Shown: positions 9,059-63,680 of the stretch, piece after piece
Layout: each line of letters starts with the position of its first letter
How positions within the stretch are numbered: the stretch's first letter is position 1
Source: Pseudomonadota bacterium
GTDB taxonomy: Bacteria; Desulfobacterota; Anaeroferrophillalia; Anaeroferrophillales; Tharpellaceae
Assembly (NCBI GenBank): GCA_011049115.1
Contig: DSCM01000102.1
Span: 174 to 64,173 of the forward strand
Reading direction: 5' to 3'
DNA: 64,000 nt
Position numbers and translations under genes: made by a program
The notes under the pieces: model-generated
Seen by the model: only the letters and a program-made list of their open reading frames with translations
What the model was told of the DNA's origin: nothing
The model's database searches: none

Positions 9059-9079
9059 TAAAAAACCTTTTAAGACCTT

Positions 9080-43473: not shown

Positions 43474-46122
43474 TCAGAGCGATGGTTTCTTCAGAGATAA
43501 GCTCCGGGAAAACCGGTAAACCAGAAAAACAAGACTGAACAACAAGCCAAGGGACACAATCCAGGCCAGATCGAAAAAGCTCAGAGGAGTGATCCTGAAA
43601 TAGAACGCTAGCGACGACGTATACATGAGGACACCCTGCAGTAAGAGCGAAAAGATGATGGAATTCCAGACCCACAGGTTGGAAAAAAAGGGAACTTCAT
43701 ATTCTTTGCGAATCAGGAAAACCAGAATCATCTCATAAAGAACCACAAAATTGAAGACCACGGTTCGCGCCTTGCTGAGCTGGTCCTCCGAACTGGCAAC
43801 CCCGCCAAAGTGGTAAAAGAGAAACAACCCCAGCAAGGTGCCGGTCACCCCCATAAAAGCAATCAATCCCAACTTGGCTCCGGTCAGCAAAGGCTCATCC
43901 TTTTTCTTGGGTGGTCGCCGCATAATATTGCGCCCGTAACCGTCGACACTGAAGGCCAGCGCCGGAGCCCCATCGGTAACCATGTTGATCCAGAGCAGCA
44001 TAACTGCGGTCAGAGGTAGGTTCCAGCCCAGCAGCACCGCCAAAAAAATAATCAGAACCTCGCCCAGATTACCGGAAAGCAGGAGCATGATTGATTTCTG
44101 AATATTGTCATAGATGCCCCTGCCCTCTTCGATGGCATTGACGATATGAGTGAAGCTGTCATCCAGCAGAACAAAATCGGCGGCTTCCTTGGCAACATCA
44201 GTACCACTGCCGACGGCGATGCCGATATCGGCCTTTTTCAGGGCCGGAGCATCGTTGACCCCGTCCCCGGTCATGGCCACAATATGGCCAAGTTCCTGTA
44301 AAAGGGTGACAATCCTTTGTTTGTGTTCGGGTACCATCCGGGCAAAGATGTTAGTGTCTCCGGCCAGACGTTCGCGCAGTTCGGCATCGCTCATCCCGGC
44401 GAGCTCGGCTCCGGTCAGAATACCGCCCTCAATACCGACCTCCTTGCCGACAGCCCGGGCGGTCTCGCGGTAATCTCCGGTGATCATAATGACCCTGATG
44501 CCGGCCGCATAGGTTTTGACGATTGCCGCTCTGACATCGGCACGTGGGGGGTCTAGCATGGCTTGCAAACCAATAAAAATCAACCCTTCCTCCCGAGCCG
44601 GCAGACTGGTTTCGGCCTGCAACAAAGGACTAACGGCAAAGCCCAGAACCCGCATGGCTTGTCCGGCGTAAAAATCGTTACGACCGGCGATCAGACGCCG
44701 CAGGTTCTCATCCAGGGGCAGAACTTCACCGTCTAGCAGAACCTGCGCGCAAACCTTCAGAATCGAATCCGGCGCTCCTTTCGCGTAAAGCCTGAAAGCG
44801 CCGTTCTCGATCACCGTCACGCTCATCATTTTACGCTGCCCGTCAAACGGAATTTCATCAACCCGAGCCGCACTGATTCGGCAATGGGCCTGCTCGGCAC
44901 TGATCAGCAGGGCGATTTCCGTGGGGTCACCCCGTTTTTCCCGGCCTGACGCCCCCGCTTTGATTTCAGCGTCATTACAAAGAGCTCCACCCGTAAAAAG
45001 CAGTTTCTCAACCTCTTCCAAGGCGCCGGAAAGCGATTCCCCATCCAAAGCTATTTCCCGATTCAGGGTCCAGGCCCTGACCACGGTCATTTGATTACAA
45101 GTCAGAGTTCCGGTTTTATCACTGCAGATAATATCGCAACTGCCTAAGGTTTCAACCGCAGCCAGCCGCCGGACCAAGGCCTTGCGGCGCAGCAGGCGTT
45201 TAACCCCGATGCTCAGAGCGATGGTCACCACCGCCGGCAGGGCCGTGGGTACCGCCGCCACCGCCAGGCTGATGGCGATAAAGGAAAAGGCGATCAGCGA
45301 CTCACGACTGACATTATGAAACTGCAGATATTCCTTGCCGCAGGAAAGGACCATGACCATCAGACAAATGAAAATGATCACCAGGCCTAAACGATGGCCA
45401 AAGCGATCAAGGCGGCGTTGCAGTGGGGTTACTTCCTCGACCGCACTCTCAACCAGGCCGGCAATCGCGCCGATCTCGGTTTCCATGCCGGTGGCGACCA
45501 CCAGCCCAAGCCCCCGACCGCTGACGACCGCGGTTGAGGCAAAGAGCATGTTTTTACGGTCGCCGAGCTCCAGAACCTGAGTATGAACCTCGGTCGTCTT
45601 AGTTACCGGCAGACTTTCCCCGGTCAGAACGGCTTCATCGACAAGCAGGCGATTCGCCTCCAGGACCCTGGCATCGGCGGGAATCCGATCGCCGCCCACC
45701 AGACTGACCAGATCGCCCGGGACCAGATCGCGTGATTTGAGTTTGCGCCAGTTGCCGTCCCGCAGCACCGTGGCCTCGACTTCGGTCATCTCTTTTAATG
45801 CCGCCAGCGAACGCGCCGCCCCGAATTCCTGAAAAAACCCGATAAACGCATTGACCAGAACTATCGCAACAATAATCAGGGAATCGACATACTCACCGAT
45901 AGCCAGAGCGAAAGCCACGGCAAAGAGAAGAATATAGATAATGAAGCTTTTAAACTGCTCCAGAAAAATCCGCAGCGGATGAGGCGGCGGCATTTCTCTG
46001 AGTCGATTGAAGCCGTATTTTTCGAGCCGGGCGGTGGCCTCGGTTTCTGAGAGGCCTTGCCCGTCACAAACTAATTCAGCAAAAAGCTCAGTCGCGGTCT
46101 TCTGATAAGGGGCTACCTTCAT
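43474..46122 (-). CDS. Cation-transporting P-type ATPase (P2/P3-type, Ca2+/Mg2+-like)
   Basis: DKTGTLT phosphorylation motif, TGDGVNDAPALKKADIGIA hinge, and ten transmembrane segments. 882 aa. Confidence 0.85.
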   Translation of the reverse strand: MKVAPYQKTATELFAELVCDGQGLSETEATARLEKYGFNRLREMPPPHPLRIFLEQFKSFIIYILLFAVAFALAIGEYVDSLIIVAIVLVNAFIGFFQEFGAARSLAALKEMTEVEATVLRDGNWRKLKSRDLVPGDLVSLVGGDRIPADARVLEANRLLVDEAVLTGESLPVTKTTEVHTQVLELGDRKNMLFASTAVVSGRGLGLVVATGMETEIGAIAGLVESAVEEVTPLQRRLDRFGHRLGLVIIFICLMVMVLSCGKEYLQFHNVSRESLIAFSFIAISLAVAAVPTALPAVVTIALSIGVKRLLRRKALVRRLAAVETLGSCDIICSDKTGTLTCNQMTVVRAWTLNREIALDGESLSGALEEVEKLLFTGGALCNDAEIKAGASGREKRGDPTEIALLISAEQAHCRISAARVDEIPFDGQRKMMSVTVIENGAFRLYAKGAPDSILKVCAQVLLDGEVLPLDENLRRLIAGRNDFYAGQAMRVLGFAVSPLLQAETSLPAREEGLIFIGLQAMLDPPRADVRAAIVKTYAAGIRVIMITGDYRETARAVGKEVGIEGGILTGAELAGMSDAELRERLAGDTNIFARMVPEHKQRIVTLLQELGHIVAMTGDGVNDAPALKKADIGIAVGSGTDVAKEAADFVLLDDSFTHIVNAIEEGRGIYDNIQKSIMLLLSGNLGEVLIIFLAVLLGWNLPLTAVMLLWINMVTDGAPALAFSVDGYGRNIMRRPPKKKDEPLLTGAKLGLIAFMGVTGTLLGLFLFYHFGGVASSEDQLSKARTVVFNFVVLYEMILVFLIRKEYEVPFFSNLWVWNSIIFSLLLQGVLMYTSSLAFYFRITPLSFFDLAWIVSLGLLFSLVFLVYRFSRSLSLKKPSL

Positions 46123-46319
46123 GTAAACCCGCCTTTTAAACTGCCTGGTGATACATCCTTGACCCGGGCAACGGTGAAAAAACGAGGCCGCTCTCGCCCG
46201 GCGCGCTCCTTTTCCGCAGCTGTCAATCTTCTTTGTAATTCATTCAGCCAAGCGCTTAGACACTCGTATATAACCATGGAAAGCAGGATATTCTGGTTGG
46301 CTGAATAGGTACTCTTATT

Positions 46320-47423
46320 TTATGTAAAGCGGCGCATGAACTGGCGATCAATGTAATCTTTGAGCCTGAAAGCGCTTTTGCCGGAACAGGTCAATCCCCA
46401 TTTGTACAGCAAGCCACTACCGTCGCCGAGATTGAAGATCTGCAGATAGTCGCCCCCGGGGGAAAAAGGGCGCAGTGGGCGGTTCTCCAGGGCAGCCCGC
46501 AGATTATAAAAAAGTACTGGATTTTGCCGCACGGCGTAGACCCCGACCTTATCAAGCGGCTGTTCCGTAAAAGCGATGCAGTCGCCCCCACCGAAAATTT
46601 CGGGACAAGACCAGGACTGAAGAAAACGGTTTACCGCAAGGCCTCCACCCCCTTGCACCAGCAGGCCGGTTTCCACCGCCGGAACCAGGGGCCGGACCCC
46701 GGTGGCAATCAGAACGGCATCGAAATTAATCCGTAAACCTGAGACAAGTTCAAGCTGATCGCCATAAACCGCGTTGACATGACCTTCTTCGAGCACTTCA
46801 ATAGCGCGTCCTTTCAGCGACGCTGTAACCCGCCGTCTGACGCCGACGGGAAAACGAGCCAGCAGTTTTCTGCCGGCGCAAAGCTTAAAACAGAGACGAT
46901 TACAACCCGCCTTATCCCCCAAACGCCGGAGATTTCCCACGATCTCGACCGCGGCCGGGCCGCCGCCGACCACGGCGACCGTCAGCTTGCGCTTTCGCAG
47001 GCGATCACGAATAAAGGTCCGGGCCGCGAGCAGACTTGCAATCGGCTTGACCATGAAGATATTGGCGGCTTTTTCCCTGATCATGCCATGCGGGACGTAG
47101 CTGCCGGTATTCAACGACAGGATATCGTAGCCCAGCGTTTCTCCGGATTCAAGCTCCAGTTCCCGTTTTTCGGCCGCGATGCGCACGACCCGCTCCTGAA
47201 TAAAACAACCGCCATTTTTCTCAACCTGGGCTTGGGTCGGGGAACGGATCTCCTCGGGCTCATAGAAACCGCCGAGCAGCCCCGGTCCCATACCGGAATA
47301 GTAATGTCAGGGCGAAGGCTGAATCACCGTTACCCGATGTCCGCGCCGGACAAACTCATGCAGACCGGCCAGGGTCTTAAGGTGAGCATACCCGCCGCCG
47401 ACCAGGACCAGATTTTTCGGCAT
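46320..47423 (-). CDS. FAD/NAD(P)-binding pyridine nucleotide-disulfide oxidoreductase (NDH-2/SQR-like) with an in-frame UGA (candidate Sec) at 47307-47309
   Basis: ATG at 47423 gives MPKNLVLVGGGYAHL...HRVTVIQPSP-[TGA]-HYYSGMGPGLLGG, which continues in frame into ORF 46320..47291 (second Rossmann motif VAVVGGGPAAVE). The FAD-binding fold spans the UGA, so the gene is either Sec-containing or broken. A UUCCGG-UAUGGGA-CCGGGG hairpin starts 8 nt after the UGA. Confidence 0.5.
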
Positions 47424-47441
47424 GGTCACTCCTTGGGCTGA

Positions 47442-49043
47442 TCAGGTCAGCGCCGCCGCCAGCAGGGTTTGCGTGTATGGATGAACCGGATGGTTAAACA
47501 CCTGCGCGGCCGCTCCGCTTTCAACGATTTTTCCCTCGTGCAGCACCATGATGCGATGGCACAGAGCCCTGATTACTTTAAGATCATGCGAGATAAAAAG
47601 ATAGGCCAGATTATGTTTTTCCTGCAGGGCCCGCAGCAGATCGACCACCTGGGCCTGAACCGACCGGTCCAGCGAGGACGTCGGTTCATCCAGAACCAGC
47701 AACCGGGGCTCGAGAACCAGGGCTCGGGCGATGGCGATCCGCTGCCGCTGGCCACCGGAAAACTCATGCGGATAACGGCGTAGACAGCTTTCGTCGAGAC
47801 CGACCTCGGCCAGCGTGGCGATCACCTTCCGCAAGCGTTGCCGGGAATCACCCAGACCATGCAGAGCCAGGCCTTCGCCGACGATTCGGTCAATCGTCAG
47901 GCGTGGGCTCAGGCTGGAAAAAGGATCCTGAAAAACAACCTGAAGATCACGTCTCAAGGCGCGCAGCGCCGCACCTTTCAATCCGGTGATATCACGGCCG
48001 GCGAAACAAATCTCACCTTTTGCCGCCAGCAGACGCAACAGGGCGAAGCCCAGGGTCGATTTTCCCGAGCCGCTCTCACCCACCAGGCCGAGACTTTCCC
48101 CGGCGCGAATGGCCAGCGAAACCCCGTCCACGGCTTTGACATGATCCCGAACCCTGCGCCAGAAACCTCGACGCAGGGGAAACCAGACCTTGAGATCACG
48201 GGCTTCGAGAAGGTAGTCGTTTCCCGTTTTCAAAGCCGGGGGCCGGCCGGAGGGTTCGGCGCATAACAGTTTTTGGGTGTAAACATGTTGCGGGCGGGCA
48301 AAAATCTCTCGACAGGTACCGGTTTCGACAATACGGCCACCGGTCATGACCGCGACCCGGTCGGCATAACGCCGGACCACTCCCAGATCGTGAGTAATCA
48401 ACAGCATCGCCATGCCCAGACGTTTATTCAGATCGCGCAACAGGTCGAGTACCTGGGCCTGCACAGTCACGTCCAGAGCCGTCGTCGGCTCGTCGGCAAT
48501 CAACAGGTCCGGCTGATTGGCTAAGGCCATGGCGATCATGACCCGCTGCCGCTGACCGCCGGAAAGCTGATGCGGATAGGCGTCAAGACGGCGAGCGGCG
48601 TCTTCGATACCCACCATTTCCAATAGTTCACGAACCTTTTGCCGCAGTTCCCGGCGGCCCTCGCCCCCCCCGTGCAGTCTCAGGCTTTCCCCGATCTGGC
48701 GGACAATCGGGTGCAGCGGATTAAGCGAGGTCATGGGTTCCTGAAAAATCATGCCGATTCGATTACCGCGCAGATTCCGCATGCGGCTTTCCGGCAGGGT
48801 AAAAATCTCCTGGCCCTTGAAAAAGATGTGCCCCTCACCGGGATGCCAGGCTTCCGGATAAGGCAGCAGGCGCAAAATCGAATGGGCGGTCACCGATTTG
48901 CCGGAACCGCTTTCGCCCACCAGGGCCACGATTTCATGTGGAGCAATCGCCATGGACAGTCGATCCACCGCCAAAAGCGGTTCCGGCCCGCGTCCGAAAG
49001 CCACGGAAAGATTCTTGATTTCAAGTAAAGGCTGAGTCATCAA
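47442..49043 (-). CDS. yejF: ABC transporter ATP-binding protein with duplicated ATPase domains (YejF-like)
   Basis: Two Walker A motifs (GESGSGKS twice), two LSGGQ signatures, 533 aa. Confidence 0.8.
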   Translation of the reverse strand: MMTQPLLEIKNLSVAFGRGPEPLLAVDRLSMAIAPHEIVALVGESGSGKSVTAHSILRLLPYPEAWHPGEGHIFFKGQEIFTLPESRMRNLRGNRIGMIFQEPMTSLNPLHPIVRQIGESLRLHGGGEGRRELRQKVRELLEMVGIEDAARRLDAYPHQLSGGQRQRVMIAMALANQPDLLIADEPTTALDVTVQAQVLDLLRDLNKRLGMAMLLITHDLGVVRRYADRVAVMTGGRIVETGTCREIFARPQHVYTQKLLCAEPSGRPPALKTGNDYLLEARDLKVWFPLRRGFWRRVRDHVKAVDGVSLAIRAGESLGLVGESGSGKSTLGFALLRLLAAKGEICFAGRDITGLKGAALRALRRDLQVVFQDPFSSLSPRLTIDRIVGEGLALHGLGDSRQRLRKVIATLAEVGLDESCLRRYPHEFSGGQRQRIAIARALVLEPRLLVLDEPTSSLDRSVQAQVVDLLRALQEKHNLAYLFISHDLKVIRALCHRIMVLHEGKIVESGAAAQVFNHPVHPYTQTLLAAALT

Positions 49044-49123
49044 ACTTAATTCTCACGTCTGTCTATCCAGGGTTACAAATTAGCTTCCGTGACGGGCGGC
49101 ATACGCCCTGACCCGTTTTCGTT

Positions 49124-52100
49124 TTATCCGTTCAAAGCCTCGCGCACCTTGATCGCCAGATTCCGATTTGAAAAAGGCTTCTGAATAAAAATCACCCCCT
49201 GATCCAGCAAGCTCCGATGGACAATAACATTGGCCGAGTATCCGGACATAAACATGGCTTTCATTGCCGGATACTGACGGCGCAGTTGCTCCGCCAAATC
49301 ACGACCGTTCATGACCGGCATGACCACATCGGTGATCAGCAGGCTGATTTCACCCGCGTGCCGCTCAGCCAGGTTCAGAGCCTGATCCGTGGTCTCGGCG
49401 GCCAGCACTCGATAATTCAGCCGTTCGAGGATCGCCTTGACGAGTTTCAGGATGGAAACTTCATCCTCGACCAGCAGCACGGTTTCGCCTTGACCCACGG
49501 GAACTGTCGTCACCTCCGGCTCCGCGCCCGGTTCGTCTTCACCCTGATGACGAGGCAGATAAATCCTGATGGTTGAGCCTTTCCCCGGTTCGCTGTAAAC
49601 ATTGATGAAACCTTTATTTTGTTTGACGATACCGTAAACCGTGGCCAGACCCAGGCCGGTGCCGTCGCCGGCTTTCTTGGTCGTGAAGAAAGGATCGAAA
49701 ATATTGTCGATGATTTCCGGAGGCATGCCGCAGCCGTCATCGCTGACGGCTAAAAGAACGAAGGCACCGGGAATAATAAATCCGGCGTGAGCGGCGCAGT
49801 AGGCCTCGTCAATGGATACGTTATCGGTCTCAATGGTGACCTTGCCGACATCGGTGATGGCATCCCGGGCGTTGACGCAGAGGTTGGCCAGAATCTGGTC
49901 GACCTGAGACGGGTCCATATAAACAGGCCACAAGCCCACTCCCGGACGCCAGAAAAGATCAAGGTTTTCACCCAAAAGCCGACGCAGCATTTTGAGCAGA
50001 CTTTCCACGGTCATATTTAAATCAAGCACTTTGGGGTTGATCTTCTGTTTGCGGGCGAAAGCCAGCAATTGCCGGGTCATCGCCGCGGAGCGGTTCGCGG
50101 CGTCAAGCACTTCCTCCAGATCGGCATACAGAGGCGTGGACGGGTCCAGCCCTTCCAGCGCCATCTCCGTATAACCGATAATCACGCTGAGCATATTATT
50201 GAAATTATGGGCCACGCCTCCGGCCAGACGGCCCACCGATTCCATTTTCTAAGCCTGGTGAAGCTGAGCTTCAAGGTTCTTGCGAACGGTAATATTTCTG
50301 ACAATGCCGACGCCATGAAGACGGTTGTCCAATTCAACCAACACGGCGTTGATATCGGCTGAAAAGAAACTGCCGTCCTTGCGCTTGAGCTGAACATCCT
50401 GCATGACCACGATCTTATCGCGGGGCGACGGTGCCAATCGTGCCCGAAAGTCCGCCAGCCGATCCACCGGGCAGAAGTCGGAAACCGAGAGTTCGTGAAG
50501 TTCCGTAACGGAGTAGCCCAGCATGCGACAGAGCGCTTCATTGCCCGCGACCAGACGGCCTGACTTGACCTTTGCCAACAGAATGCCGTCGCCGGCCGAA
50601 TCGAAGATGGTGCGCAGGGTTTGTTCCGATCTTAGACGCTCGGCCTCCACCTCGATTCCGTGCAGCGCAAAAGCGATGTCACCGGCGATTTCGGTCGGCA
50701 GCGAGGTTTCCTGAGCGTCACCCACAAATTCCGGCGGCGCCAGAACCCCCAGACAGCCGTACTGCCGGCCCTTATGCCTGAGCGCGAGGGTCATGCCGGC
50801 GCATTTTTCATATTGGCCTCCCAGGGGACAGCTTTCGCAGGAGGTCGCCGGATCATTGGTCAGTGCCCCCTCGCAGCAGACAGGATTTTCCCCCTCCGCG
50901 GCCCGGCCCAAAAAACGAGCGAAGGCATCGGGGTCAAATCCGCTCTGCGCCCCCTCAACCTTTTTCGGCAAGTGATCGTTCAGCACAATCCAGGCGCCCC
51001 TGAGCCCGCGTTCACGAACCAGATTCCGGCATACGGCCTGAATCAGGCGGTCACGATCCTTTTCCCGCACGATCAGCTGATTGACGCTGCGGACACCCTG
51101 CAGAACTTCGTTCAGAAACTGGATTCTTCCGGTTTGTTCCGCGACCATTTCCTCCAGTCCCTGTCGGTACCGGGCCAATTCGTCCTCGACCTTTTTGCGT
51201 CGGGAGATGTTGCGGATAATACCGACCGTGCCCAGAAAAGTGGGTAAACCGCCATTAACGGCGCCATACAGGCCGGAACTGTTAACCTCGCCGATGAACC
51301 CGGTTTGACCGCCACGGTGCAACTCCGCGGGCACGGGTTGATCGATTCCGCACGCAAGCAGGTGCAACTCCATGGCCAGGGTCTTGCGGGAACCCGTTCG
51401 ACGTTCATCAAAGAGCTTGGGCGCTTCCTCGTCACCGGTTTTCCGGCCCGCTAATCCGGGAAGGACAGCTTAGCGACTGACTTTCTCAACCTCGGCGGGC
51501 AGGGCAATCGTGGCAAACGGCAGCCCGATCAATTCTTCAGAGCTGTAGCCTAAAAGTTTCACGGCGTCGTTCAGAAACGTAAAACGGCCCTCGGTGTCGA
51601 TACGGTAGACGATGTCGGGGATCGTCGTCACCAGGGTCCGATATCTTTCTTCAGAGGCGGACAGTTCCATGATTCTCCGGGCCAGTTCCTTCTGGGTACG
51701 CTGCAGTTCCAGAAACACACGTACCTTAGCCAACAAGACGGCCGGTTTGTACGGTTTCACGATATATTCAACCGCGCCCAGTTCATAGCCTTTGAACAGG
51801 TCTTCTTCCTCGCCGTAAGCTGCGGTCATGAAGATAACGGGCAGATTTTTCGTTTTGGGGTCACCCCGCAAAAACTCGGCCAGCTCGTAGCCGTTCATGC
51901 CGGGTATCCGCACATCGAGAATCGCCAGGGAAAAATCGTGCGAGAGCGTCATGGTCAGGGCCTGATTCCCGCTGCCGGCCTCGATGACTTCGACATCCAC
52001 GGCGCTCAGGACCTGACGCAGGGCGACCAGGTTTTCCCGGTGGTCGTCCACAATCAGAACCTTCTGCCGTAACGGACGAAAAGGAGTTGAGGCAAGCCCA

Positions 52101-52180
52101 CAAGACTTCGCGGTCAAAATGTGCGCGCCTACCTCCGGAGCGGGAAAAACGTCTTGATTGCGGTTGTCTTTCTGAGCCAT
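49124..52180 (-). pseudogene. Hybrid sensor histidine kinase paralog A (REC-PAS-GAF-HisKA-HATPase_c-REC) interrupted by two in-frame stop codons
   Basis: ORFs 51470..52180, 50249..51373 and 49124..50245 are all in one frame. They are separated only by TAA (51470-51472, in the middle of a PAS domain) and TAG (50249-50251). The intact paralog has CAG/Gln at the second position (QAQKMEAVGRLAGG versus QA*KMESVGRLAGG). RBS GGAGAGG before ATG 52180. Confidence 0.55.
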
Positions 52181-52378
52181 ATCAAGTCCTCTCCGCCAAA
52201 ACCATCTCAGCTTTACAACTCATTCAGCCACCCTTACCGGCACTGTTTTTTGCCCTAATACGGGAAGCGAGCCCCGCAACCTTTCATCCGTTTCGTATAA
52301 TTCGTGAATGACCTTTTGCTACGCCTCCGGCATGCGATTTACCACCCGGTGCAGAAACAGCGAGACTTCATCCAGCAG

Positions 52379-55300
52379 TCACTCCTGGGAACGCACATCC
52401 TTGATCAAAACAGATTGCGCGTGTTCGCGCAATCTGTTTTCCTCGTCGCGGCTGAGATCCCGGGCGGTATGCACGATCACCGGCGGTAATTCAACCCCCT
52501 CGCGTTCAAGCTCGGTGAGCAACTCGTTGCCGTCCATGTCCGGCAGCCGCAGATCGAGAACGGGACAGTCATAGTTTTCCGCACGCAGCGCGGTCATGGC
52601 CTCGGCCCCGGTCGCGGCCTCGTCAACCGTGGTGTCAGCGCTGGCGACCAGCGCCACCGTCGCATGACGGATCTCCGGATCATCCTCGACCACCAGCACC
52701 CGCTTGGAATGTTCGGCGGCAACCTGTTCGAGCCGGCGGAAAGTCAGTTCGAGTTCTTCCGCGTTCAAAGGTTTGACGGCGTGGCTGATCGCGCCGCGGC
52801 TGCGCGATTCGGTCGTGGGTTCTTCAACGGATACCACATGAACGGGAATATGACGGGTGCGAACATCTTCCTTGAGCATCCCCAGGACCGTCCAGCCGTC
52901 CATACCGGAAAGCCCGATGTCGGGAATCACCGCCTCCGGCAGATGTTTGACCGCGAGTTCCAGACCGATTTCCCCGGTCGCCGCGGCCAGGCATTTCAGG
53001 CCTTTCTCGTGGCATTTATCCCGCAGGAGCCCGGCAAAACGTAAATCGTCCTCAATAATCAGAATAACCCGGTCAGTGGCGCTGAGAAGATCACGATCGT
53101 CGTTTATCGGGGGTGGAATCCGGGGCTCTGCAGTCTGGACATCGGCATGTTTTTTCGCCGACCGCGCTCCGTTTTCAGGGGCTGTCTGAGCTTCAACCGG
53201 AAGTTCAAGGCGAAACGTCGATCCCCGGCCCGGTTCGCTATCCAGCTGGATTTCACCGCCCAGCAGGGTTGCGATTTCGCGGGAAATCGACAGCCCCAGT
53301 CCCGTGCCGCCGTATTTTCGCGCCGTGCTGCCGTCGGTCTGCTAAAAGGCCTCGAAAATCACCTTATGCTGTTCCCGGGCGATGCCGATTCCGGTGTCGG
53401 TGATGCTGATGGCGAGCTGTCGCGGAGCGCGGATCCGACCCTGAGCGAAGGTGACCGTGACGCCGCCGGTCTCCGTGAATTTGACGGCGTTGGAGACAAG
53501 GTTGCGAATCACCTGTTCGACGCGCTTGGGGTCGCTGGTAATTTCGTCGGGCGCGTCCTCACGGATCACCACCTTCAGGCTGATCCCCTTTTCCTCGGCC
53601 AGATGCCCGAAAGATGTGCGGACGCGTTCGGCAAGCTCGCTGACCGACACCGGTCCGAAACGCAAATCTATGCGCCCGGCCTCGATTCGAGACAGATCCA
53701 GAATTTCGTTGATCAGGTTCAGAAGATCGTTACCGGCGGCGTGAATAATCTTCGCCGACTCCACCTGATCGGCGGCCAGATTGCCATCCTGGTTTCGGGC
53801 GAGACCTTGAGCGAGCAGCAGCAGGCTGTTCAGCGGCGTTCGCAGTTCATGCGACATGTTCGCCAGGAATTCGGACTTGTACTTGCTGGCCAGCGCCACT
53901 TCCTCGGCTTTTTCCTTCACGACCTTTCCGGCACGTTCGATTTCCCGGGTCCGGCGTTCAAGCAGATCATTTTTTTCCTTGAGCTCCTCATTGGTGAGCT
54001 CCAATTCCTCTTGTTGCCGCCTGAGATTTTCCTCGGATTCCTGCAAGCGCAAAGTCTGTTCTTCCAACTCCTCGTTGGCAACCCTCAACTCCTCCTGCTG
54101 AACCTGAAGTTCTTCGGTTAAGCGCTTCGACTCCTCGAGCAGTTCCTTCATGCGTTCCCGCGATTGGGCGGTCTGGACGGCGATCCCGATCGAATCGGTC
54201 ACCAGGTCAAAAAAGTCCCGGTGCAGAGCCGAGAACGGCTTAAGCGAGGCAATTTCAATAACCCCCATGAGCTCCTGCTCAAACAGGAAGGGCACAGCGA
54301 GAATATTCCGGGGGCCCAGTTGGCCGAGGGCCGATCCGATCATGACATAGTCTGCCGGCACATCGTGCAGCGACAGCGGCTTTTTCCCGGCCGCCGCCTG
54401 CCCCACCAACCCTTCACACCAACCGCAAAGACCTCCGACACCGCCTCGTGTTTACGGTAGGCATAGCGACCGGTCAGACGAAGCCGGCCGTTAACAAACA
54501 GAAAAAGCGCTCCCCAACTGGGCGTCAACGACTTCGACGACACAGGCGATAATTTCATCGGCGAGCGTCACGAGGTCCTTTTCACCCCGCAGGTGTTCGT
54601 TCAGCCGGTTCCGCCCCTCGCGCAGCCGCTCCTGTCTTTGCAGTTTAGCCGCCATGTCGTTGAAAGCCGCGCCGAGCCCGCCGATTTCATCACGAGTCAA
54701 AATTTATGTGCGCACGCCCAGATCGCCCGCGGCGACCCGCTCCGCCGCGGCGGTGATTTGCTGTAACGGAAAGGCGATCACCCGGTTCATTACCCAGGCT
54801 ATGAAAAGGGCAAATAAAATCGCCGCCAGCGCGATGATCACAAACGTGATGACCGCGTGGTTCAGCAGACGCGCGGATTCGCCCACCCTGGTGGCGATAT
54901 ATTTTCGCAGCCCCTCGTCAACCGCGATCAAAGTTGCACGCATTCGTTCAAAACGCGCTTTTTGCGCTCCCGTGCCGATCATACGCGCTTCGTCGGCTTT
55001 ACCGGCGCCAATCAGTTTAAGCTGTTGCGCGAGATCCAAACAATAGGCCTCCAGATCATGCTCCAGTTCGGCAACCAGTTTGAGTTCTCCGGCGAGCGCA
55101 TGCTTGTGCAAAAAGGTCTTGACCTGATCAACGGCAAGGTCAATCTCCTGCAATCTGTCCTCAATTTCGCGCTTTAAAGTACTCGTGGCGGCGACATTCT
55201 CGGCTACCAGCAGTCCCAGCAAGGAACCCCGAATGCGATTCAGATCGGAGCGGGTTTCCAGTAAGGCCATCAAGGCCGCATAACTCTGGTCAACCATCTA

Positions 55301-55555
55301 GCGCTCAAGCCTTTGCATCAGGGCGAGTTTATCATAGGCGGTCAGGGACAAGCCGACCAGCAGGGCGCCCATGACCCCAAAGCTCAATAACAGCTTTGAC
55401 TTTACCCCTGAGATGTCTAAACCAGTCCATGACAACGCTCCTTTATAATCGGGGCCATTTTGAATCTTAAAAAACAGCTCCCGCGCCGCGATTTCCGGCC
55501 TGACCACGGGGGAAGACGAGCTCAAGAAAACCCGGTCAACCGTTGCCGGAAACAC
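52379..55555 (-). pseudogene. Hybrid sensor histidine kinase paralog B (TM-4HB sensor-TM-HAMP-GAF-HisKA-HATPase_c-REC-REC) with three in-frame stops and two compensating frameshifts
   Basis: In-frame TAG at 55298-55300, TAA at 54704-54706 (inside the HAMP domain) and TAG at 53342-53344 (FEAF*QTDG, where the HATPase consensus has Q). The frame shifts near 54490 and near 54415 inside the GAF domain, and a TAA at 54491-54493 falls inside that shifted stretch. The receiver-domain sequence continues upstream of ORF 52379..52930 without an ATG. Confidence 0.5.
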
Positions 55556-55570
55556 ACGCGTTAAACCCCA

Positions 55571-56700
55571 TCATTTGTCGGCCAGCACCATCCTGATTTT
55601 GGCGGCCAGATCCCTGGTTGAAAAAGGCTTCTGAATGAATTGGCAACCTTTGTCGAGCACCCCCCGGTGCACGATCACGTTCGCGGTATATCCCGACATG
55701 TACAAACACTTAAGCTTTGGGTACAGGGCCTGCAAGCGTCCGGACAGTTCCCGGCCGTTCATTTCAGGCATCACCACGTCGGTAAGCAACAGGTCGATCT
55801 CGCCGTCATGCTCGGCGGCCATCCGCAAAGCGTCGGAAGGGGTCGGCGCGGTCAAAACCCTGTAGTTGAGTTGGGTGAGAATGGTTTTAACCAGCTCAAG
55901 AATGGGAAATTCATCTTCCACCACCAGCACGGTTTCAGCGGCGCCCGGATGAATCTTTTCGGGAACCGGCACAGGCTTCTCCGGAAGCTCTGCCCCCATA
56001 TACCGCGGCAGATAAATCCTGAAGCTGGTGCCTTCGCCCGGTTCACTGTAAACATTGATAAAACCCTGGTTCTGTTTGACGATTCCGTACACCGTGGACA
56101 ACCCCATGCCGGTGCCCCGGCCGGCCCCTTTGGTGGAAAAAAAAGGCTCGAAGATCTGCGCCACGATCTCGCGGTCCATGCCGCAACCGTCATCACTGAC
56201 GGCCAACAACACAAAATCGCCGGGCGCGGCCTCCGCGTGCAACGCGCAATAAGCCTCGTCGAAGCTTACCTTGGCCGTCTCAATACTGACCTTGCCCACA
56301 TCGCTGATGGCATCCCGGGCGTTGACACAGAGGTTGGCAAGAATCTGATCGAGTTGCGACGGGTCCAGCAGCACCGGCCACAAATCATTTCCCGGATGCC
56401 AGACCAGGTCAAGATCCTCTCCGATGAGTCGCCGCAAAATCTTAAGCATGTTCTGCACCCCGGCGTTCAGGTCGAGAACCTGGGGCGCAATGTTTTCTTT
56501 GCGGGCGAAGGCCAGCAACTGCCGAACGATATCCCGGGATCGTGCGGCCGCGGCCAGAATTTCCTGCAGATCCTTATGCAACGGCGTTTCAGCTGCCACT
56601 TTATTCAACGCCAGTTCCGAGTAACCGATGATGACACTGAGAATATTGTTGAAATCGTGGGCCACGCCTCCGGCCAGACGGCCGACGGCTTCCATCTTCT
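55571..56700. repeat. Paralogous duplication: the HisKA-HATPase-REC-encoding segment is shared at about 85% nucleotide identity with 49124-50245
   Basis: By-eye alignment, e.g. ctgtaaacattgataaaaccctggttctgtttgacgattccgtacaccgtgg against ctgtaaacattgatgaaacctttattttgtttgacgataccgtaaaccgtgg. Confidence 0.5.
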
Positions 56701-59071
56701 GAGCCTGGTTGAGCTGAGTCCGCAGTTTATCATGTTCCTGATCGACGGCAAGACCGTGTAAGGCGAAAGCGAGGTCGCCGCAGAGTTCTGCGAACAGAGC
56801 CCGTTCCTCGACGTCGTCTGCCACCCCAACCGGCAGAGCGGCCACGAGGACGCCATACTCTTCGCCGGCATGGCGCAAAGCCCCGGCCAGGGCCGCCGTG
56901 TCGCCGTAGGTATGAGCCAGAGGACAAACATGGCAATCAGCTTTCGTACCATGCCCGAGCACAACCTCAGGTCCGGCCAGGGCCCGGCGGCAGCATTCCG
57001 GCCAGACGCCGTTTTCAAGCTCACTCCGCAACTTGGCAAAATTGTCGCCGACCCCCGCTGCGGCCACAACCCGCAGTTCCCCCAAGCCCTCGCGCAAGGC
57101 GACCCAGGCGGAATGATAACCGCGGGTTTCGACAAGGATTTCGCCGGCCCGGCGCAACAGAATTTCCCGGTTCTTCTCATGGATGATCAATTGGTTGACC
57201 TTGCGCAAGCCTCTTAACACGGCAGTTACATGCCGCAACCGCTCCTCCATTATTTTGCGCTCGCTGATATCCTCGCCGGCGCTCAGAACCCCGGTAATGG
57301 CGCCCGTCTCGTCCCGCAAGAGAGCATTATGCCAGGCAAGGGTGCGACGTTCGCCGTTACAGGCGATCACCTCATTTTCATGGTATTCAAAGGGCTCGAC
57401 CTTGCCCGCCACGATCTGCGAGAACAAAACGGACACCTCATCCTTGTTCTCGGCGGGCAGGCAGTTGTCAAACCAGTTGCGGCCTTTGAGTTCTGCCGCT
57501 CGCCGGCCCAGCAATTCGCAACCCTTACGGTTGATGAGACTGATATCGCCCTTCTCGTCCAGGGCGACAATCACAGTCTCAACCGTGTCCAGATAACTCT
57601 GGCTGCGGGCCAGCTCGGCCCGCAGCGTGCGCTCCGCCTCGCGCTCCCGGGTCTGGTCACGGAAGACCAGAACCACGCCGCTGATCACGCCCTTTTCATT
57701 CCGAATAGGTGCGCCGCTGTCGGCGATGGGCCGCTCCACCCCATCGCGGGCAACGAGCAGGGTGTGGTTGGCCAGGCCGACGATCGTTCCCTGACGCAGA
57801 ACCTTGGCCACCGGATCTTCGACCGGATTTCGGGTTTCCTCGTTGATAATGCGAAAAATCTCGGTCAGCGGGCGGCCGCAGGCCTCGGCCTGAGACCAGC
57901 CGGTAAGGTTTTCGGCTACCGGATTGAGCAGCTCCACCAGCCCCCGACCATCGGTGGCGATGACCGCGTCGCCGATGGCTTTTAAGGTCACGCGGTGGCG
58001 TTGTTCACCGGCCCGCAGCGCCGCCTCGGAAAAATACAAGGCCCGGTAGTAAGCCTTTTTGTTGCGTTGTCCCATAACCAATCCGAGCGCGCCGATGCAG
58101 GCGGCCAGCAACATAAACAAGGCCAGAATCAGGGCCGAGCGGAAACGCCATTCGGCAAAGACTTCCGCTTCATCGATTTTGGCGATCATGATCCAGGGAG
58201 AATCCGGAATGGGAAGAATGACCGCGACCACCTTGACGCCGCGATAATCTCTGCCCCGCACAAAGCCTTGCCGGCCCAATCCGGCCATGACGGCTGGAGT
58301 CTCGGTCCGGCTCAAAGGCAGCCGTAATTTAAGAGCGGTGTCGGAACGATGCCGCAGGTCGTTGAGAAATAAAACCTCGTCGCCGTCGCGTTGCACCAGC
58401 AGGGTTTCCGCGCTGTCGCTGGGCGTCGGCCAGAAACGGACCAGGGGATAGAGAAAGCTTGAGGCGTCATTGACCATGATCAACGCGGCCAGCGGCAAAA
58501 CGCTTAATCCGTTTTTATGATAAAGCGGCATGATCAGCGCAAGATGCGGAAACGTGTCGCTCGATTCCAGGTGGAGACTGGTAAATACGGGAGCATGTGC
58601 ACTCCAGGCCTGCGCCAGGGCGGACTCGAAGTCGCACCGGCAATCAGGAGCCGCGACCAGGCTGAGCAGCACTTGTCCTCCCGGGTCCGCCAGCATGATG
58701 TCTGCGTAGCCGTGGCGTTTCGCCAGGTTACGCAGACGCAGAAGCAGATCGCGGCGTTGTTCCTGACCTTGCCCGGCCATGAAAGAGGTCACGCTTTGCA
58801 GCAGAAAGAAATAATTTTGCAGGGCGGCGGCCGCTTGCAGCTGATTCTTGCGCCAGGCGGCGATCTGCTCCGCCTTAAGTCGCGCGATCGCGCCGAGATC
58901 ATTCTCGACCTTTTTTTCAACAGCTTGTTCCTGGGCCTGGTAGAACCAGAAACCGCCGAGCAGCAGGACGCCGAACGCCGACACCAGAAGAATCTTGAGT
59001 AAACGGAAGATAACCTTGAAATCAGGTTTCATGGCGTAAACCTCGCGCCCCCCGTCGCGGATCAAAGGCAT
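55571..59071 (-). CDS. Hybrid sensor histidine kinase paralog C, intact (periplasmic sensor-TM-PAS-PAS-GAF-HisKA-HATPase_c-REC, 1166 aa)
   Basis: Continuous ORF with HisKA H-box (AGGVAHDFNN), HATPase (GTGMGLSTVY) and receiver domain (DLLLTDVVMPEMNG). Segment 55571-56700 is roughly 85% identical in DNA to 49124-50245 of paralog A. Confidence 0.85.
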   Translation of the reverse strand: MPLIRDGGREVYAMKPDFKVIFRLLKILLVSAFGVLLLGGFWFYQAQEQAVEKKVENDLGAIARLKAEQIAAWRKNQLQAAAALQNYFFLLQSVTSFMAGQGQEQRRDLLLRLRNLAKRHGYADIMLADPGGQVLLSLVAAPDCRCDFESALAQAWSAHAPVFTSLHLESSDTFPHLALIMPLYHKNGLSVLPLAALIMVNDASSFLYPLVRFWPTPSDSAETLLVQRDGDEVLFLNDLRHRSDTALKLRLPLSRTETPAVMAGLGRQGFVRGRDYRGVKVVAVILPIPDSPWIMIAKIDEAEVFAEWRFRSALILALFMLLAACIGALGLVMGQRNKKAYYRALYFSEAALRAGEQRHRVTLKAIGDAVIATDGRGLVELLNPVAENLTGWSQAEACGRPLTEIFRIINEETRNPVEDPVAKVLRQGTIVGLANHTLLVARDGVERPIADSGAPIRNEKGVISGVVLVFRDQTREREAERTLRAELARSQSYLDTVETVIVALDEKGDISLINRKGCELLGRRAAELKGRNWFDNCLPAENKDEVSVLFSQIVAGKVEPFEYHENEVIACNGERRTLAWHNALLRDETGAITGVLSAGEDISERKIMEERLRHVTAVLRGLRKVNQLIIHEKNREILLRRAGEILVETRGYHSAWVALREGLGELRVVAAAGVGDNFAKLRSELENGVWPECCRRALAGPEVVLGHGTKADCHVCPLAHTYGDTAALAGALRHAGEEYGVLVAALPVGVADDVEERALFAELCGDLAFALHGLAVDQEHDKLRTQLNQAQKMEAVGRLAGGVAHDFNNILSVIIGYSELALNKVAAETPLHKDLQEILAAAARSRDIVRQLLAFARKENIAPQVLDLNAGVQNMLKILRRLIGEDLDLVWHPGNDLWPVLLDPSQLDQILANLCVNARDAISDVGKVSIETAKVSFDEAYCALHAEAAPGDFVLLAVSDDGCGMDREIVAQIFEPFFSTKGAGRGTGMGLSTVYGIVKQNQGFINVYSEPGEGTSFRIYLPRYMGAELPEKPVPVPEKIHPGAAETVLVVEDEFPILELVKTILTQLNYRVLTAPTPSDALRMAAEHDGEIDLLLTDVVMPEMNGRELSGRLQALYPKLKCLYMSGYTANVIVHRGVLDKGCQFIQKPFSTRDLAAKIRMVLADK

Positions 59072-60089
59072 CCCGCACCCCTTCCCCGATAAAAACCAAC
59101 AAACTCAGCATGACCGCCAGAATAAAAAAAGCCGACAGCCCCAGCCAGGGGGCATGCAGGTTGGCCTTGCCCTGGGCCAGCAGTTCTCCCAGCGAAGGCG
59201 AACCCGGGGGCATGCCGAAACCCAGAAAATCAAGCGAGGTTAAAGTTGTGATCGAAGCGTTGAGAATGAACGGCGCGAAGGTTACGGTCGCGACCACGGC
59301 ATTGGGCAGAATATGACGGAACATGATGGTCAAATCTCCGGCTCCCAGGGCGCGCGCGGCCCGGACATAATCGAGATTGCGGCCACGCAGGAATTCGGCC
59401 CGGACCATGCCAACCAGGCTCATCCAGGAAAAAAGCAGCATGATCCCGAGCAGCCACCAGAAATTCGGCTGAACAAAACTGGAAAGGATAATCAGCAGAT
59501 AAAGCACCGGCAAACCCGACCAGATTTCGATCAAGCGTTGGCCGAACAAATCGATGTAGCCGCCATAATAGCCTTGCAGCGCTCCGGCCGTAATCCCGAT
59601 CACGGAGCCGACCAGAGTCAGGCAAAGACCGAAGAAGACCGAAATGCGGAAACCATACAACAGGCGAGCAAAAACATCGCGTCCCTGGTCATCGGTTCCG
59701 AGCCAGTTGGCCGCCGACGGCGGCGACGGGGCCGGTTGCATGAGATTATAATTGATCGTGTCATAATGATAGCGCACCGGCGGCCAGATAACCAGGCCGC
59801 CGCCCGCGCGAATCAACTCCGCTAGATAAGGATCACGATAATCAGCCGCGGTCGCGAACTCCCCGCCGAAATCGGTCTCGGCGTAGTCCCGCATGACCGG
59901 CGCATACAGACGGCCGCCGTACAGAATCAGCAAGGGACGGTCATTGGCGATCACTTCCGCGCCCAGGCTGAGCCCGAAAAGCAGGAGAAAAATCCAGAGT
60001 GACCAGTAGCCCCGCCGGTTGGCCCGGAAACGTTGCCAGCGGCGGCGCTGAAGCGGATGGGAAAAAAAATCAGGCGAAAACAGGCTCAT
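59022..60089 (-). CDS. yejE: Peptide ABC transporter permease (YejE/DppC-like)
   Basis: Six transmembrane helices and a binding-protein-dependent permease EAA-like loop. ATGA overlap with yejB. Confidence 0.8.
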
Positions 60090-61186
60090 GCATCTCGTTC
60101 CGCAAAATCGATTCGAGGATCAACCACCATATAACAGAGGTCGCTGATCAGATTGGTAAGCAGACCCAGCAGCGTGAAAAGATAAAGGGTCGCGAACATC
60201 ACCGGATAGTCCCGACCGATCGTGGCCTCGAAACCCAGCAGCCCGAGCCCGTCGAGGGAAAAGATCACCTCGATCAACAGGGAGCCGGCAAAAAACATGC
60301 TGATGAAAGCGGCCGGGAAACCCGCGATGATAATCAGCATCGCGTTCCGGAAAACATGACCGTAAAGCACTTCCTTGAAACTCAAACCCTTGGCGCGAGC
60401 CGTGATGACGTATTGCTTGCCGATTTCATCCAGAAACGAATTTTTGGTAAGCATGGTCAGGGTCGCGAAACCGCCGATCACCATGGCGGTCACGGGCAGG
60501 GCGAGATGGTGAAAATAGTCGATAACCTTGCCCCCCGGACTGAGATTGGCAAAATTGTCGGAGACCAGTCCCCGCAGCGGAAACCAGCTAAGATAGCTGC
60601 CGCCGGCGAACAGCACGACCAGCAGGACCGCGAACAGAAAAACCGGAATCGCATTGCCGATGATGATTATGGTACTCGACCAGATATCGAAACGGCTGCC
60701 GTGTCGCACCGCCTTGGCGATGCCCAGGGGAATCGAAACCAGGTAAATAATCAACGTGCTCCAGACCCCGAGAGAAATCGAAACCGGCATCTTTTCAATG
60801 AGCAGTTCAACCACTCGTTTATTGCGATAAAAACTTTCTCCGAAATCAAAACAAAGATAATCCCGAAGCAACTTCAGATAACGTTTATGGAGGGGCTGGT
60901 CAAAACCGTAGAGTTTCTCGATTTCTGCGACTAGTTCGGGATCGAGCCCCTGAGCTCCGCGATAGCTCCCCCGATCGGCCGAATTCTGCCCGGCGCGGCT
61001 TTTCAGCTCGGCGTTTTCACTCCCGGCAACCCGGACCGTGGCACTCTCGCCACTTTTCTCCAGGCGGGCGACCAGCTGCTCCACCGGACCGCCGGGAGCG
61101 GCCTGAATAATAAAGAAATTAATCGTCAGGATGCCGATCAGGGTCGGGATAATCAGCAGCAGCCGGCGAATGGTATAGGCAAACAT
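60086..61186 (-). CDS. yejB: Peptide ABC transporter permease (YejB/DppB-like)
   Basis: Permease fold and the operon context. Confidence 0.8.
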
Positions 61187-61187
61187 T

Positions 61188-63047
61188 TCAGGGTTGCAAA
61201 CTCCACCAGGTCATCAGCCCGAGACCGTAGCGGGGCACGGTCTCGGGCTGGGCGAATTTATTCCAGTAGGCGATGCGAAAGGTGCTGATATGCCAGTGCG
61301 GCAGCACGTAAAACCCCCACTGCAACACTCGGTCCAGGGCCCGCACCCGGTTAACCAGACTGCGTCGATCTTCAGCCTGAATCAGCGCTTCAACCAGAGC
61401 GTCGACCACCGGATCCTTGATCCCGGCCAGGTTGCGACTGCCGAAAACCTCGGCAGCCTCCGAATGCCAGTAGTTGCGTTGTTCGTTGCCGGGAGAAAGG
61501 GACTGACCAAAACTCCAGACGACCATATCAAAATCAAATTCGCGCACGCGATTAAGATACTGAGCCGTATCAATGACCCGGACCACGGTTTCAATACCGA
61601 GGCGCTCAAGATTTTTTTTAAAAGGCAGGACAATCCGCTCAAAGGCGGGAGAGGTCAACATGATCTCAAAGACAAAAGGTTTGCCCTTTTGATCGACCAG
61701 TTTACGATCGACAACCCGCCAGCCGGCAAGTTCCAGCAGGGCCGCAGCCTGCCTGAGATTGGCCCGCAGGGACGCCGGAGGCGTGGTGGTCGGCAGCCGA
61801 TAGCTGTCGCTAAAAACCTCGGCCGGCAGTTGCGGCCGAAAAGGCTCAAGCAGGGCCATTTCGGCCGCTGACGGCGGACCGACCGCGGCCAATTCGGAAT
61901 TGCTGAAATAACTCTGCGTGCGCTGATATTGATTGTAAAAGAGATTCTTGTTACTCCACTCAAAATCAAAGGCGTAAATCAGAGCTTCACGAACCCGGCG
62001 ATCGGCAAACAACGACCGCCGGGTATTGAAAACAAAACCCTGCATGCCCTGGGGAATCTCATGGGCGATCTCTTTTTTTATAATCCTGCCGCTATCAAAT
62101 TGCGGCCCCTGATAAAGAGTGGCCCAGTTTTTGGAAACATTTTCGTGGCGAAAATCGTATTCTCCGGCCTTGAAAGCCTCCAGGGCGACGGTGGCGTCGC
62201 GGTAATAGTCAAAAACCAGAAGATCGAAATTATAGCGTCCCGAAGTAACCGGCAGATCCGCCCCCCAATAATCCTTGACCCTTTCATAGGTGACCGACTT
62301 GCCGGGAACAAAGTCTTTCAGACGATAAGGACCGCTGCCGAGCGGCACCGTCAGATCGGCCACGTCAAATTCCTTGTCCCGCCAGAAATGTCGGGGCAGA
62401 ATCTCTAGCTGGCCGACGATCAGGGGCAATTCTGAGTTTTTGCCATCCTTGAAAGTGAATTTGACCCGGTGTTGGTCCAGGGCTGCGACGCCGGTTACGT
62501 CGGCGTAATAGCGCTTGTACATGGGTTGACCTTTTTGCAGCAGCAATTCAAAGGTAAAAACCACGTCTTCGGCCGTCACCGGTGAACCGTCATGAAAGCG
62601 GGCTTGCGGACGCAGGTCAAAAATCACGAAACTGCGGTCCGCAGCCAGCTCAACCTTTTCCGCCAGCAGACCGTACTGACTGAAAGGTTCATCCTCGGCC
62701 GCGGCCATCAGGGTATCGTAAATCATACCGATACCGGCCGCCGCCACCCCTTTCAGAATATGGTCATTGAAGCTGTCAAAGGTGCCGATCACCGCCTGGC
62801 ACAGCCGGCCGCCTTTAGGCGCCTTCGGGTTGACGTAGGTAAAATGGGTGAATTCAGGGCCATATTTGAGTTCGCCATGCAGAGCCAGACCATGACTGGT
62901 ACTGGTGGCCGCGGCCGCGCTCAGACGCGGCCCGGACGGAAAAAGCCAGGACAACAGCCCGATAAAAAAACCTCCCCAAACCAACACTTTTCGCTTGACC
63001 GGCACCGGCAACTCCATTCCAAATAAAACAAAAAGATAAGCCGTCAA
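61188..63047 (-). CDS. yejA: Extracellular solute-binding protein family 5 (YejA-like periplasmic peptide-binding protein)
   Basis: 619 aa with a signal peptide and SBP_bac_5 architecture. Heads the yejA-B-E gene string. Confidence 0.8.
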
Positions 63048-63356
63048 AAAACTACCTCGGAAATAGCCCTAGCACAGTCGGCAGGGACTGTCCAGCGGGC
63101 TTTAAAACAATTCTTGACTTTAAAACATATTTTTGCAACTATTCAGCGCAGTTGCTATCAGCCTGTTTAAAGACTTGAAAACCATGAAAATCGCAGGGAA
63201 ATCGGGATGGCGAATTTCCCTCTGGTTTTCCGGGTCAACTGGACGGTTACGTATTTTTTTTAAGATAACAAGCTCATTGAAATTGAATTCGGCGTTATAC
63301 AGAGCACTGAAAAACTAAGCATAACAATTTATAGATAAATCATCAATTATTTTTCA

Positions 63357-63629
63357 ATGAAAAAATGGCGGGTCTACATGCTGCGTTGCAGCGACGGTTC
63401 CCTTTATACCGGCATCACTAATGATCTGGTTTCACGCTTGCGGGCGCATCACGAAAAAAAGGGGGCCCGCTATACGCGTTCGCGCCTGCCGGCGGAGCTG
63501 GTCTATTGGGAGGAAGCCGGAGACCGCAGTTTTGCCAGCCGCCGGGAAGTTGCGCTCAAGAAGTTGTCTCGTAAAAGAAAACTTGAACTTATCGCCGCGC
63601 GTCAGTTTCCACCCAAGCAGTCGGGCTGA
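63357..63629 (+). CDS. GIY-YIG nuclease-superfamily small protein (YhbQ/UPF0213-like)
   Basis: VYMLRCSDGSLYTGITNDLVSRLRAH GIY-YIG core. 90 aa. Confidence 0.75.
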   Translation: MKKWRVYMLRCSDGSLYTGITNDLVSRLRAHHEKKGARYTRSRLPAELVYWEEAGDRSFASRREVALKKLSRKRKLELIAARQFPPKQSG

Positions 63630-63680
63630 GGTCCAGCGAAAACACCGTTCGAACTCTTTGGTCTGGTGCGAGAGACACTC

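Follow-up and report, generated by a model that had tools for sequence, protein, structure and literature searches.

Two of the three hybrid sensor kinase genes lying between yejE and yejF in a 64,000-nucleotide stretch of DNA from an uncultured member of the Thermodesulfobacteriota (hereafter the window) are interrupted by in-frame stop codons. These genes, kinases A and B, are very probably ordinary young pseudogenes, left by the recent, lineage-specific decay of a single signalling cassette.

Layout of the locus

The genes follow one another on the minus strand in the order listed here.

59022..63047, minus strand: yejA (61188-63047), yejB (60086-61186) and yejE (59022-60089), all intact
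55571..59071, minus strand: kinase C, intact, dCache-PAS-PAS-GAF-HisKA-HATPase-REC (translation, Pfam)
52282 (approximately)..55430, minus strand: kinase B pseudogene, 4HB_MCP-HAMP-GAF-coiled coil-HisKA-HATPase-REC-REC, third REC deleted (reconstruction, Pfam)
49124..52180, minus strand: kinase A pseudogene, two nonsense codons in an otherwise continuous frame, REC-PAS-GAF-PAS-HisKA-HATPase-REC (translation, Pfam)
47442..49043, minus strand: yejF-like double ABC ATPase, intact (Pfam: two ABC_tran and oligo_HPY)

All four component types of a yejABEF operon are present (an SBP_bac_5 binding protein, two BPD_transp_1 permeases and a double ABC ATPase), with the A-B-E-F order and strand kept. The identity of yejA, yejB and yejE was established from Pfam matches in called genes (L001), from a Pfam search of yejE directly and from tblastn matches in other genomes, and the window yejF shares 52-73% identity with its counterparts in 80 genomes. 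With yejE ending at 59022 and yejF starting at 49043, the operon is not contiguous in the window. In most of the other 80 genomes, which were fetched with YejF, yejE and yejF abut with only a few bases between them, as expected by the preliminary description, which had placed yejABE and yejF on either side of the kinase array. Kinase C was confirmed as intact by translation and its gene overlaps the end of yejE. Its start is likely the Met at 59032, and the JGI gene call gives a product of 1153 aa. The hybrid-kinase architectures proposed earlier were likewise recovered by Pfam, and outside the lesions the window is densely coding.

A sister genome retains the intact genes

A close relative was found by cluster look-up, in which the 373-aa C-terminal fragment of kinase A grouped with a 511-aa protein from another MAG that reads QAQKMESVG across the A TAG site. 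This sister genome (GCA_016936995.1) has approximately 96-97% nucleotide identity to the window (two contigs, 96.0-97.4%). Its gene order is kinase C (partial), an intact kinase B of 1174 aa, a cheR of 275 aa whose identity was confirmed by Pfam, kinase A and yejF. The cheR-A spacer is 133 nt long, and no cheB was found in the sister or the window. Sister A spans two contig ends with around 40 codons missing between them and reads through both lesion sites as far as the contigs reach. At all seven positions where A and B carry nonsense codons in the window, the sister has sense codons: GAG, GAA, CAG, CGA and CAG in B, and GAA and CAG in A. Thus, a close relative has an intact B ortholog and an A that is intact as far as its contigs cover, whilst the window genes carry disabling lesions of several kinds (nonsense codons, indels and a deletion).

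Lesions in kinase B

The differences from the sister in and beside kinase B are as follows.

55408..55408, minus strand: +G frameshift, GGG to GGGG, nine codons past the B ATG (comparison with sister)
55298..55300, minus strand: TAG from GAG (Glu) (sister codon comparison)
54704..54706, minus strand: TAA in the HAMP domain, from GAA (Glu) (sister codon comparison)
54418..54515, minus strand: part of the GAF domain, bounded by a +1 insertion at 54515 and a GT duplication (+2) at 54418-19
53342..53344, minus strand: TAG in the HATPase domain, from CAG (Gln) (sister codon comparison)
52379..52381, minus strand: TGA from CGA (Arg), not a natural stop (sister codons, homologs)
52319..52321, minus strand: TAG in the REC2-REC3 linker, from CAG (Gln) (sister codon comparison)
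52271..52281, minus strand: junction of a 1,263-bp deletion, holding the sole remaining copy of the 11-bp repeat GGTTGCGGGGC

Kinase B has therefore accumulated five nonsense codons (three TAG, one TAA and one TGA), three slippage-type insertions and a 1,263-bp deletion. Its extent had been given as 52379..55555, and neither end held. The true start is the ATG at 55430, followed by the frameshift at 55408, so B does not begin at the GTG at 55555. At the other end, the TGA at 52379-81 is a CGA-to-TGA nonsense change, and the third receiver domain has been deleted. This TGA also overturns the statement that the stops are only TAG or TAA, and the TAG at 52319-21 adds a further stop to those described.

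Two frame shifts are indeed present in the GAF domain, as had been noted, but they lie 96 nt apart instead of about 70 and do not compensate for one another functionally. The upstream frame runs into the TAA at 54491-93 between the two insertions, so the second shift fails to rescue translation.

With the deletion went the third receiver of B, the entire cheR gene and the cheR-A spacer. The missing segment corresponds to positions 5173-6435 of L084 in the sister, at both ends of which GGTTGCGGGGC occurs. Intact B homologs of the same architecture are 1183-1195 aa long and end in the third receiver. In a homolog search with reconstructed B, the intact proteins reached at most 67% identity, and a metagenome scan with the sister B protein returned, among the matches listed, only distant homologs at 65% identity or less and no intermediate strains. 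The possibility that B and A, which share a common frame, form one fused gene was rejected, as cheR lies between them in the sister; the N-terminal receiver of A is also unlike the one that ends the B homologs, which again speaks against a fusion.

Lesions in kinase A

Kinase A (49124-52180) is, as first described, a single frame broken by two stops only. It also carries in-frame indels and a substitution in the H-box.

51470..51472, minus strand: TAA from GAA (Glu), a G>T change (sister codon comparison)
approximately 50863: in-frame deletion of 21 nt in the GAF domain (the seven deleted residues are kept in kinase C)
50249..50251, minus strand: TAG from CAG (Gln) (sister CAG; paralog C has Gln)
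50204..50206, minus strand: H-box HDFNN to HNFNN, with Asn for Asp adjacent to the phospho-accepting His
49777..49779, minus strand: in-frame insertion of 3 nt (ATT duplication; the extra residue is missing in C)

The H-box change is derived in the window lineage, since Asp stands at this position in sister A and in C from either genome. From what is generally known of HisKA kinases, replacing this Asp with Asn is expected to impair the kinase.

All six stop codons of the preliminary description were found at their minus-strand sites (TAA at 51470, 54704 and 54491; TAG at 50249, 55298 and 53342). The sister CAG codons also bear out Gln as the ancestral residue at 50249-51 and 53342-44. The view that the stops arose by C-to-T change of Gln codons holds for these two sites, but three of the seven nonsense codons are G>T changes at Glu.

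The lesions are real

An exact-protein look-up with kinase C found three further assemblies of the locus (ENA ERZ1742330, ENA ERZ27245514 and JGI 3300022547). According to the literature, JGI metagenome 3300022547 also yielded the type MAG of Candidatus Anaeroferrophillus wilburensis, an organism to which the window need not belong. Each matches window positions 45571-64000 without gaps at 99.98% identity over 18.4 kb. Only 3 of 18,430 positions differ from the window (47307, 52746 and 52786), none of them a stop or an indel, and every window lesion is present in all three. Their gene calls give the same fragments, of 197, 354, 183, 236, 374 and 373 aa. The contigs come from different assemblers (a JGI contig, a SPAdes NODE_ contig, a MEGAHIT k141_ contig and a second JGI contig). 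As the three matching assemblies do not differ among themselves, they and the window represent at least two distinct genotypes; related samples may lie behind the three, which would perhaps leave only two truly independent data sets.

Sequencing or assembly error in a repeat-rich region had been offered as one explanation for the stops. Three of the small indels do lie in short homopolymers or dinucleotide repeats, and A and C are approximately 69% identical in DNA across their kinase modules, which might invite such errors. However, four assemblies made with different assemblers have all lesions in common, seven of the lesions are base substitutions and 69% identity is too low for mis-assembly. 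An artefact is thus extremely improbable, and the in-frame stops and frameshifts are real.

The same lesion genotype recurs almost clonally in several metagenomes.

The stops are not decoded

Programmed read-through, a suppressor tRNA or codon reassignment could in principle keep A, and perhaps B, functional, and the window does resemble a system with stop-codon reassignment or suppression in having in-frame TAG and TAA where relatives have Gln or Glu. That A is a single frame with two stops and in-frame indels only would fit such a reading. Unlike such a system, however, the window also has TGA among its in-frame stops, the stops are absent from the sister, frameshifts and a deletion lie alongside them and neighbouring genes end in TAA or TAG. 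Among the 50 neighbouring ORFs of at least 150 aa, 22 end in TAA, 21 in TGA and 7 in TAG, so TAA and TAG serve as ordinary terminators in 29 of 50. Kinase B in addition has three frameshifts and a truncating deletion, the H-box of A is damaged, and no tRNA gene was found within the 64-kb window. Pyrrolysine or selenocysteine at the stops was rejected, the sister having Glu, Gln or Arg codons there. Recoding is all but excluded by the TGA among the stops, the sense codons of the sister, the accompanying frameshifts and deletion, and the normal termination with TAA, TAG and TGA nearby. The locus thus reflects gene decay and not recoding or unusual decoding, and read-through, previously ranked as the least likely explanation, retains practically no probability.

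The kinases are not a recent amplification

The array had been described as three close paralogs arising from recent insertion and local amplification of a kinase cassette. In local BLAST, A and C are 63% identical over only the C-terminal ~400 aa and 27% identical in their sensor parts, whilst B is 28-30% identical to A or C in the catalytic domain. The copies are thus not similar over their full length, and the sister has the complete array too, in the same order and at a dS of approximately 0.07-0.12. The three kinases are therefore not products of tandem amplification; A and C have only an old transmitter module in common, the one that is 63% identical.

The sister genome also bears on the age of the operon interruption, as it too has about 10 kb of signalling genes between yejE and yejF and an intact B within them. 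The adjacency of yejE and yejF that the preliminary description called normal was found in most of the 80, but not in the sister. The split between yejABE and yejF is real but older than the divergence of window and sister, and since the sister already carries the interruption it is not recent. By YejF, the nearest GTDB representative is L004, a Thermodesulfobacteriota MAG (73% identical), in which a REC-PAS-HisKA-HATPase-REC kinase overlaps the start of yejF and no yejABE was found within 10 kb upstream. This kinase is just 33% identical to A, and its orthology with A is therefore uncertain. Names in public records put the organism among MAGs labelled 'Deltaproteobacteria' or Thermodesulfobacteriota.

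Kinase B, cheR and kinase A as a probable cassette

In the matches listed, cheR lies immediately downstream of the B homolog on the same strand at 43 of the 66 loci with sufficient downstream sequence. L086 and L117 encode, one after another, a kinase, CheR, CheB and a REC-PAS-HisKA-HATPase-REC protein. Because of this adjacency and the order in L086 and L117, we infer that B, cheR and A probably worked together as one signalling cassette. The sister has its parts in the form of a B-type hybrid kinase (4HB_MCP-HAMP-GAF-HisKA-HATPase followed by three REC domains), cheR and A, a REC-PAS-kinase-REC protein (REC-PAS-GAF-PAS-HisKA-HATPase-REC). It differs from the kinase-CheR-CheB-kinase arrangement in having no cheB between cheR and A and an extra GAF-PAS in A. 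Only remnants are left in the window, where cheR is deleted and both kinases are broken.

A very recent pseudogenisation of redundant paralogs had also been considered. The recency is upheld by the intact sister genes and by replacements on the window lineage (see below), whereas the redundancy is not, as B-cheR-A matches a conserved cassette.

Just past the window end lies a fourth kinase gene with several frameshifts and stops.

Constraint and timing of the decay

Pairwise dN/dS was calculated against the sister, where the preliminary description had proposed a comparison of A and B with C. Kinase C gave 0.22 (dS 0.12) and yejF 0.18, whilst B gave 0.30 (dS 0.07) and A gave 0.59 in its first half and 0.25 in its second. 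Kinase C and the transporter genes are still under purifying selection. The pairwise value for B is barely above those of intact genes, and because pairwise dN/dS is still this low, most of the divergence arose under constraint and the decay is recent. The good preservation of the domains, which had been called unusual for old pseudogenes, leaves nothing to explain, the pseudogenes being young. In-frame stops at Gln codons within preserved domains need no special explanation if a relative 96-97% identical has the genes intact.

Replacements at conserved positions were unevenly distributed between the two lineages. At columns conserved in 40 B homologs, 13 replacements were derived in the window and 2 in the sister, with those of the window including L>P and P>S in the active-site loop of the first receiver. 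With C as the outgroup, A has approximately 8 window-derived replacements at conserved positions, the H-box D>N among them, versus 1 derived in the sister. By these comparisons, relaxed constraint in A and B is confined to the window lineage.

The C-terminal fragment of A (49124-50245, HisKA-HATPase-REC) could conceivably have survived by gene fission, being made by termination-reinitiation and acting as a sensor-less kinase. The TAG AAA ATG context, with an ATG two codons past the TAG, and a 373-aa ORF holding a complete transmitter would suit this, as would the dN/dS of 0.25 for this half. That value, however, mainly reflects the history before the stop arose. The window-derived D>N beside the phospho-accepting His and further D>N changes in the receiver tail suggest that constraint has been lost, and the partner genes B and cheR are destroyed. 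We consider fission very unlikely, and the fragments of both A and B are most likely non-functional.

The mutation spectrum

Read on the coding strand, four of the seven nonsense changes are C>T, and the other three, at Glu codons, are G>T. A burst of hypermutation, by cytosine deamination or oxidative damage on that strand, might produce such a pattern, and strand-biased deamination had been put forward before. However, stops begin with T, so most single-base paths to them necessarily run through C>T or G>T; first-position transitions that create stops are all C>T on the coding strand because the genetic code requires it. Over B as a whole the spectrum is symmetric, with 21 C>T versus 22 G>A and 18 T>C versus 16 A>G. 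Together with the three G>T stops this tells against strand-biased deamination, and hypermutation has the indels and the repeat-mediated deletion against it as well. Only a trace of probability remains for it.

In a simple model, approximately 4-5% of non-synonymous mutations are expected to be nonsense. Over both lineages there were 7 nonsense and 74 missense differences (81 non-synonymous), giving P ~0.11 when all are counted as neutral; P falls to ~0.01 if just the ~49 differences estimated for the window lineage are counted. Nonsense codons are 2-3 times commoner than the neutral expectation, a mild excess that is suggestive only.

This excess bears on whether loss of the cassette was adaptive, with selection having promoted the inactivation of B-cheR-A, say in a stable habitat such as a spring or sediment, and independent knock-outs enriched. 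Besides the excess, such a reading could draw on the decay of 3 of the 4 kinase genes in the 69 kb examined, versus approximately 1 of ~50 other genes, and on the recurrence of the lesion-bearing genotype in several assemblies. However, selection accounts for just the first disabling hit per unit and not for nine lesions in one gene, and if A and B belong to one cassette they do not count as separate targets. By the conservative counting, moreover, the enrichment is not significant (P ~0.11-0.14). Adaptive loss is therefore improbable as the cause, albeit less so than fission.

A model for the loss of the cassette

Under the preferred reading of recent decay in one lineage, the ancestor would have had, all on the same strand, yejA-yejB-yejE, kinase C, kinase B, cheR, kinase A and yejF, with B, cheR and A probably forming a two-kinase relay with a methyltransferase, an arrangement found in many bacteria. 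Selection presumably ceased to maintain this cassette in the population sampled by the window. Ordinary spontaneous mutations would then have followed: GC>AT transitions and GC>TA transversions creating stops, slippage at short repeats and deletion between 11-bp direct repeats. The loss of one component would have freed its partners from selection, which may explain why three adjacent genes decayed jointly beside an intact kinase C.

In these respects the locus resembles other young bacterial pseudogenes, with an intact close ortholog, mixed lesions derived in one lineage, replacements of conserved residues on that lineage and functionally linked genes decaying together. It differs from them in that decay is limited to one cassette and a neighbouring kinase in a dense and otherwise intact 64-kb region, with no sign of genome-wide reduction in the window, and in its occurrence in an uncultured member of the Thermodesulfobacteriota. 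It is possible, but rather unlikely, that the lineage is selectively shedding sensory kinases as its signal transduction undergoes an early, ongoing and perhaps adaptive streamlining while it lives in a stable habitat. If kinase decay were genome-wide, the window and its sister would offer a modest natural case of regulatory genes being lost at an early stage, in an uncultured member of the Thermodesulfobacteriota.

The main use of these results lies in annotation: the fragments appear in public records as individual proteins, such as a 'response regulator' in the case of the 373-aa part of A, and the A and B fragments deserve to be marked there as pseudogenes.

Overlap of kinase C with yejE

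The start of kinase C, the intact sensor-kinase gene between yejE and yejF, overlaps the 3' end of yejE (window 59022-59071), by 50 nt if the first ATG is used and by 11 nt if translation begins at the Met at 59032. This overlap suggests that the transporter and kinase are co-transcribed or translationally coupled. At the other end of the kinase array, the short spacer between pseudogene A and yejF (window ~49070) lacks 10 nt that are present in the sister genome.

B-type kinases in a conserved cassette

Homologs of kinase B were found in a cassette of conserved order, comprising a B-type hybrid kinase, CheR, CheB and then a REC-PAS-kinase-REC gene, at three loci:

L086 7233-14644: cassette with B homolog
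L117 9329-17543: cassette with B homolog
L084 2017-7955: cassette in the sister genome, with no cheB between cheR and A

The CheB of the cassette consists of the methylesterase domain only. In B, as in its homologs, the GAF and HisKA domains are separated by a long coiled coil with repeated EELxxxNEEL motifs. We speculate that CheR methylates this coiled-coil segment of the B-type kinases.

Genes flanking the array

In the nearest GTDB relative (L004), a REC-PAS-kinase-REC gene overlaps the yejF start (8110-9999) and is preceded by MacB/HlyD-type genes in place of yejABE. Downstream (13052-13457) lie short P-type ATPase fragments with 69% identity to the P-type ATPase of the window, where the gene is intact (43474-46122).

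Further genes near the locus in the window:

46320-47423 (-): Pyr_redox_2 family gene, downstream of yejF
63682-64000, running on past the window end (L001 3070-5390): fourth sensor kinase, SBP_bac_3 - PAS - HisKA - HATPase - REC

Codon 47307-47309 of the Pyr_redox_2 gene is an in-frame TGA in the window copy and TGG (Trp) in three other, nearly identical metagenome assemblies, which encode the full 367-aa ORF. The difference reflects either an error or a nonsense polymorphism specific to the window. One of these assemblies (L003) comes from JGI metagenome 3300022547, the metagenome given as the origin of the Candidatus Anaeroferrophillus wilburensis type MAG (bioRxiv 10.1101/2021.03.22.436540). 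The window may come from this organism.

Several frameshifts and stops break the fourth kinase into at least four pieces, and its decay looks more advanced than that of A or B. Between it and yejA lies a small ORF with a GIY-YIG domain (window 63357-63629, +), called at 83 aa in the near-identical assembly L001; in the window the ORF is 90 aa long when counted from its first ATG.
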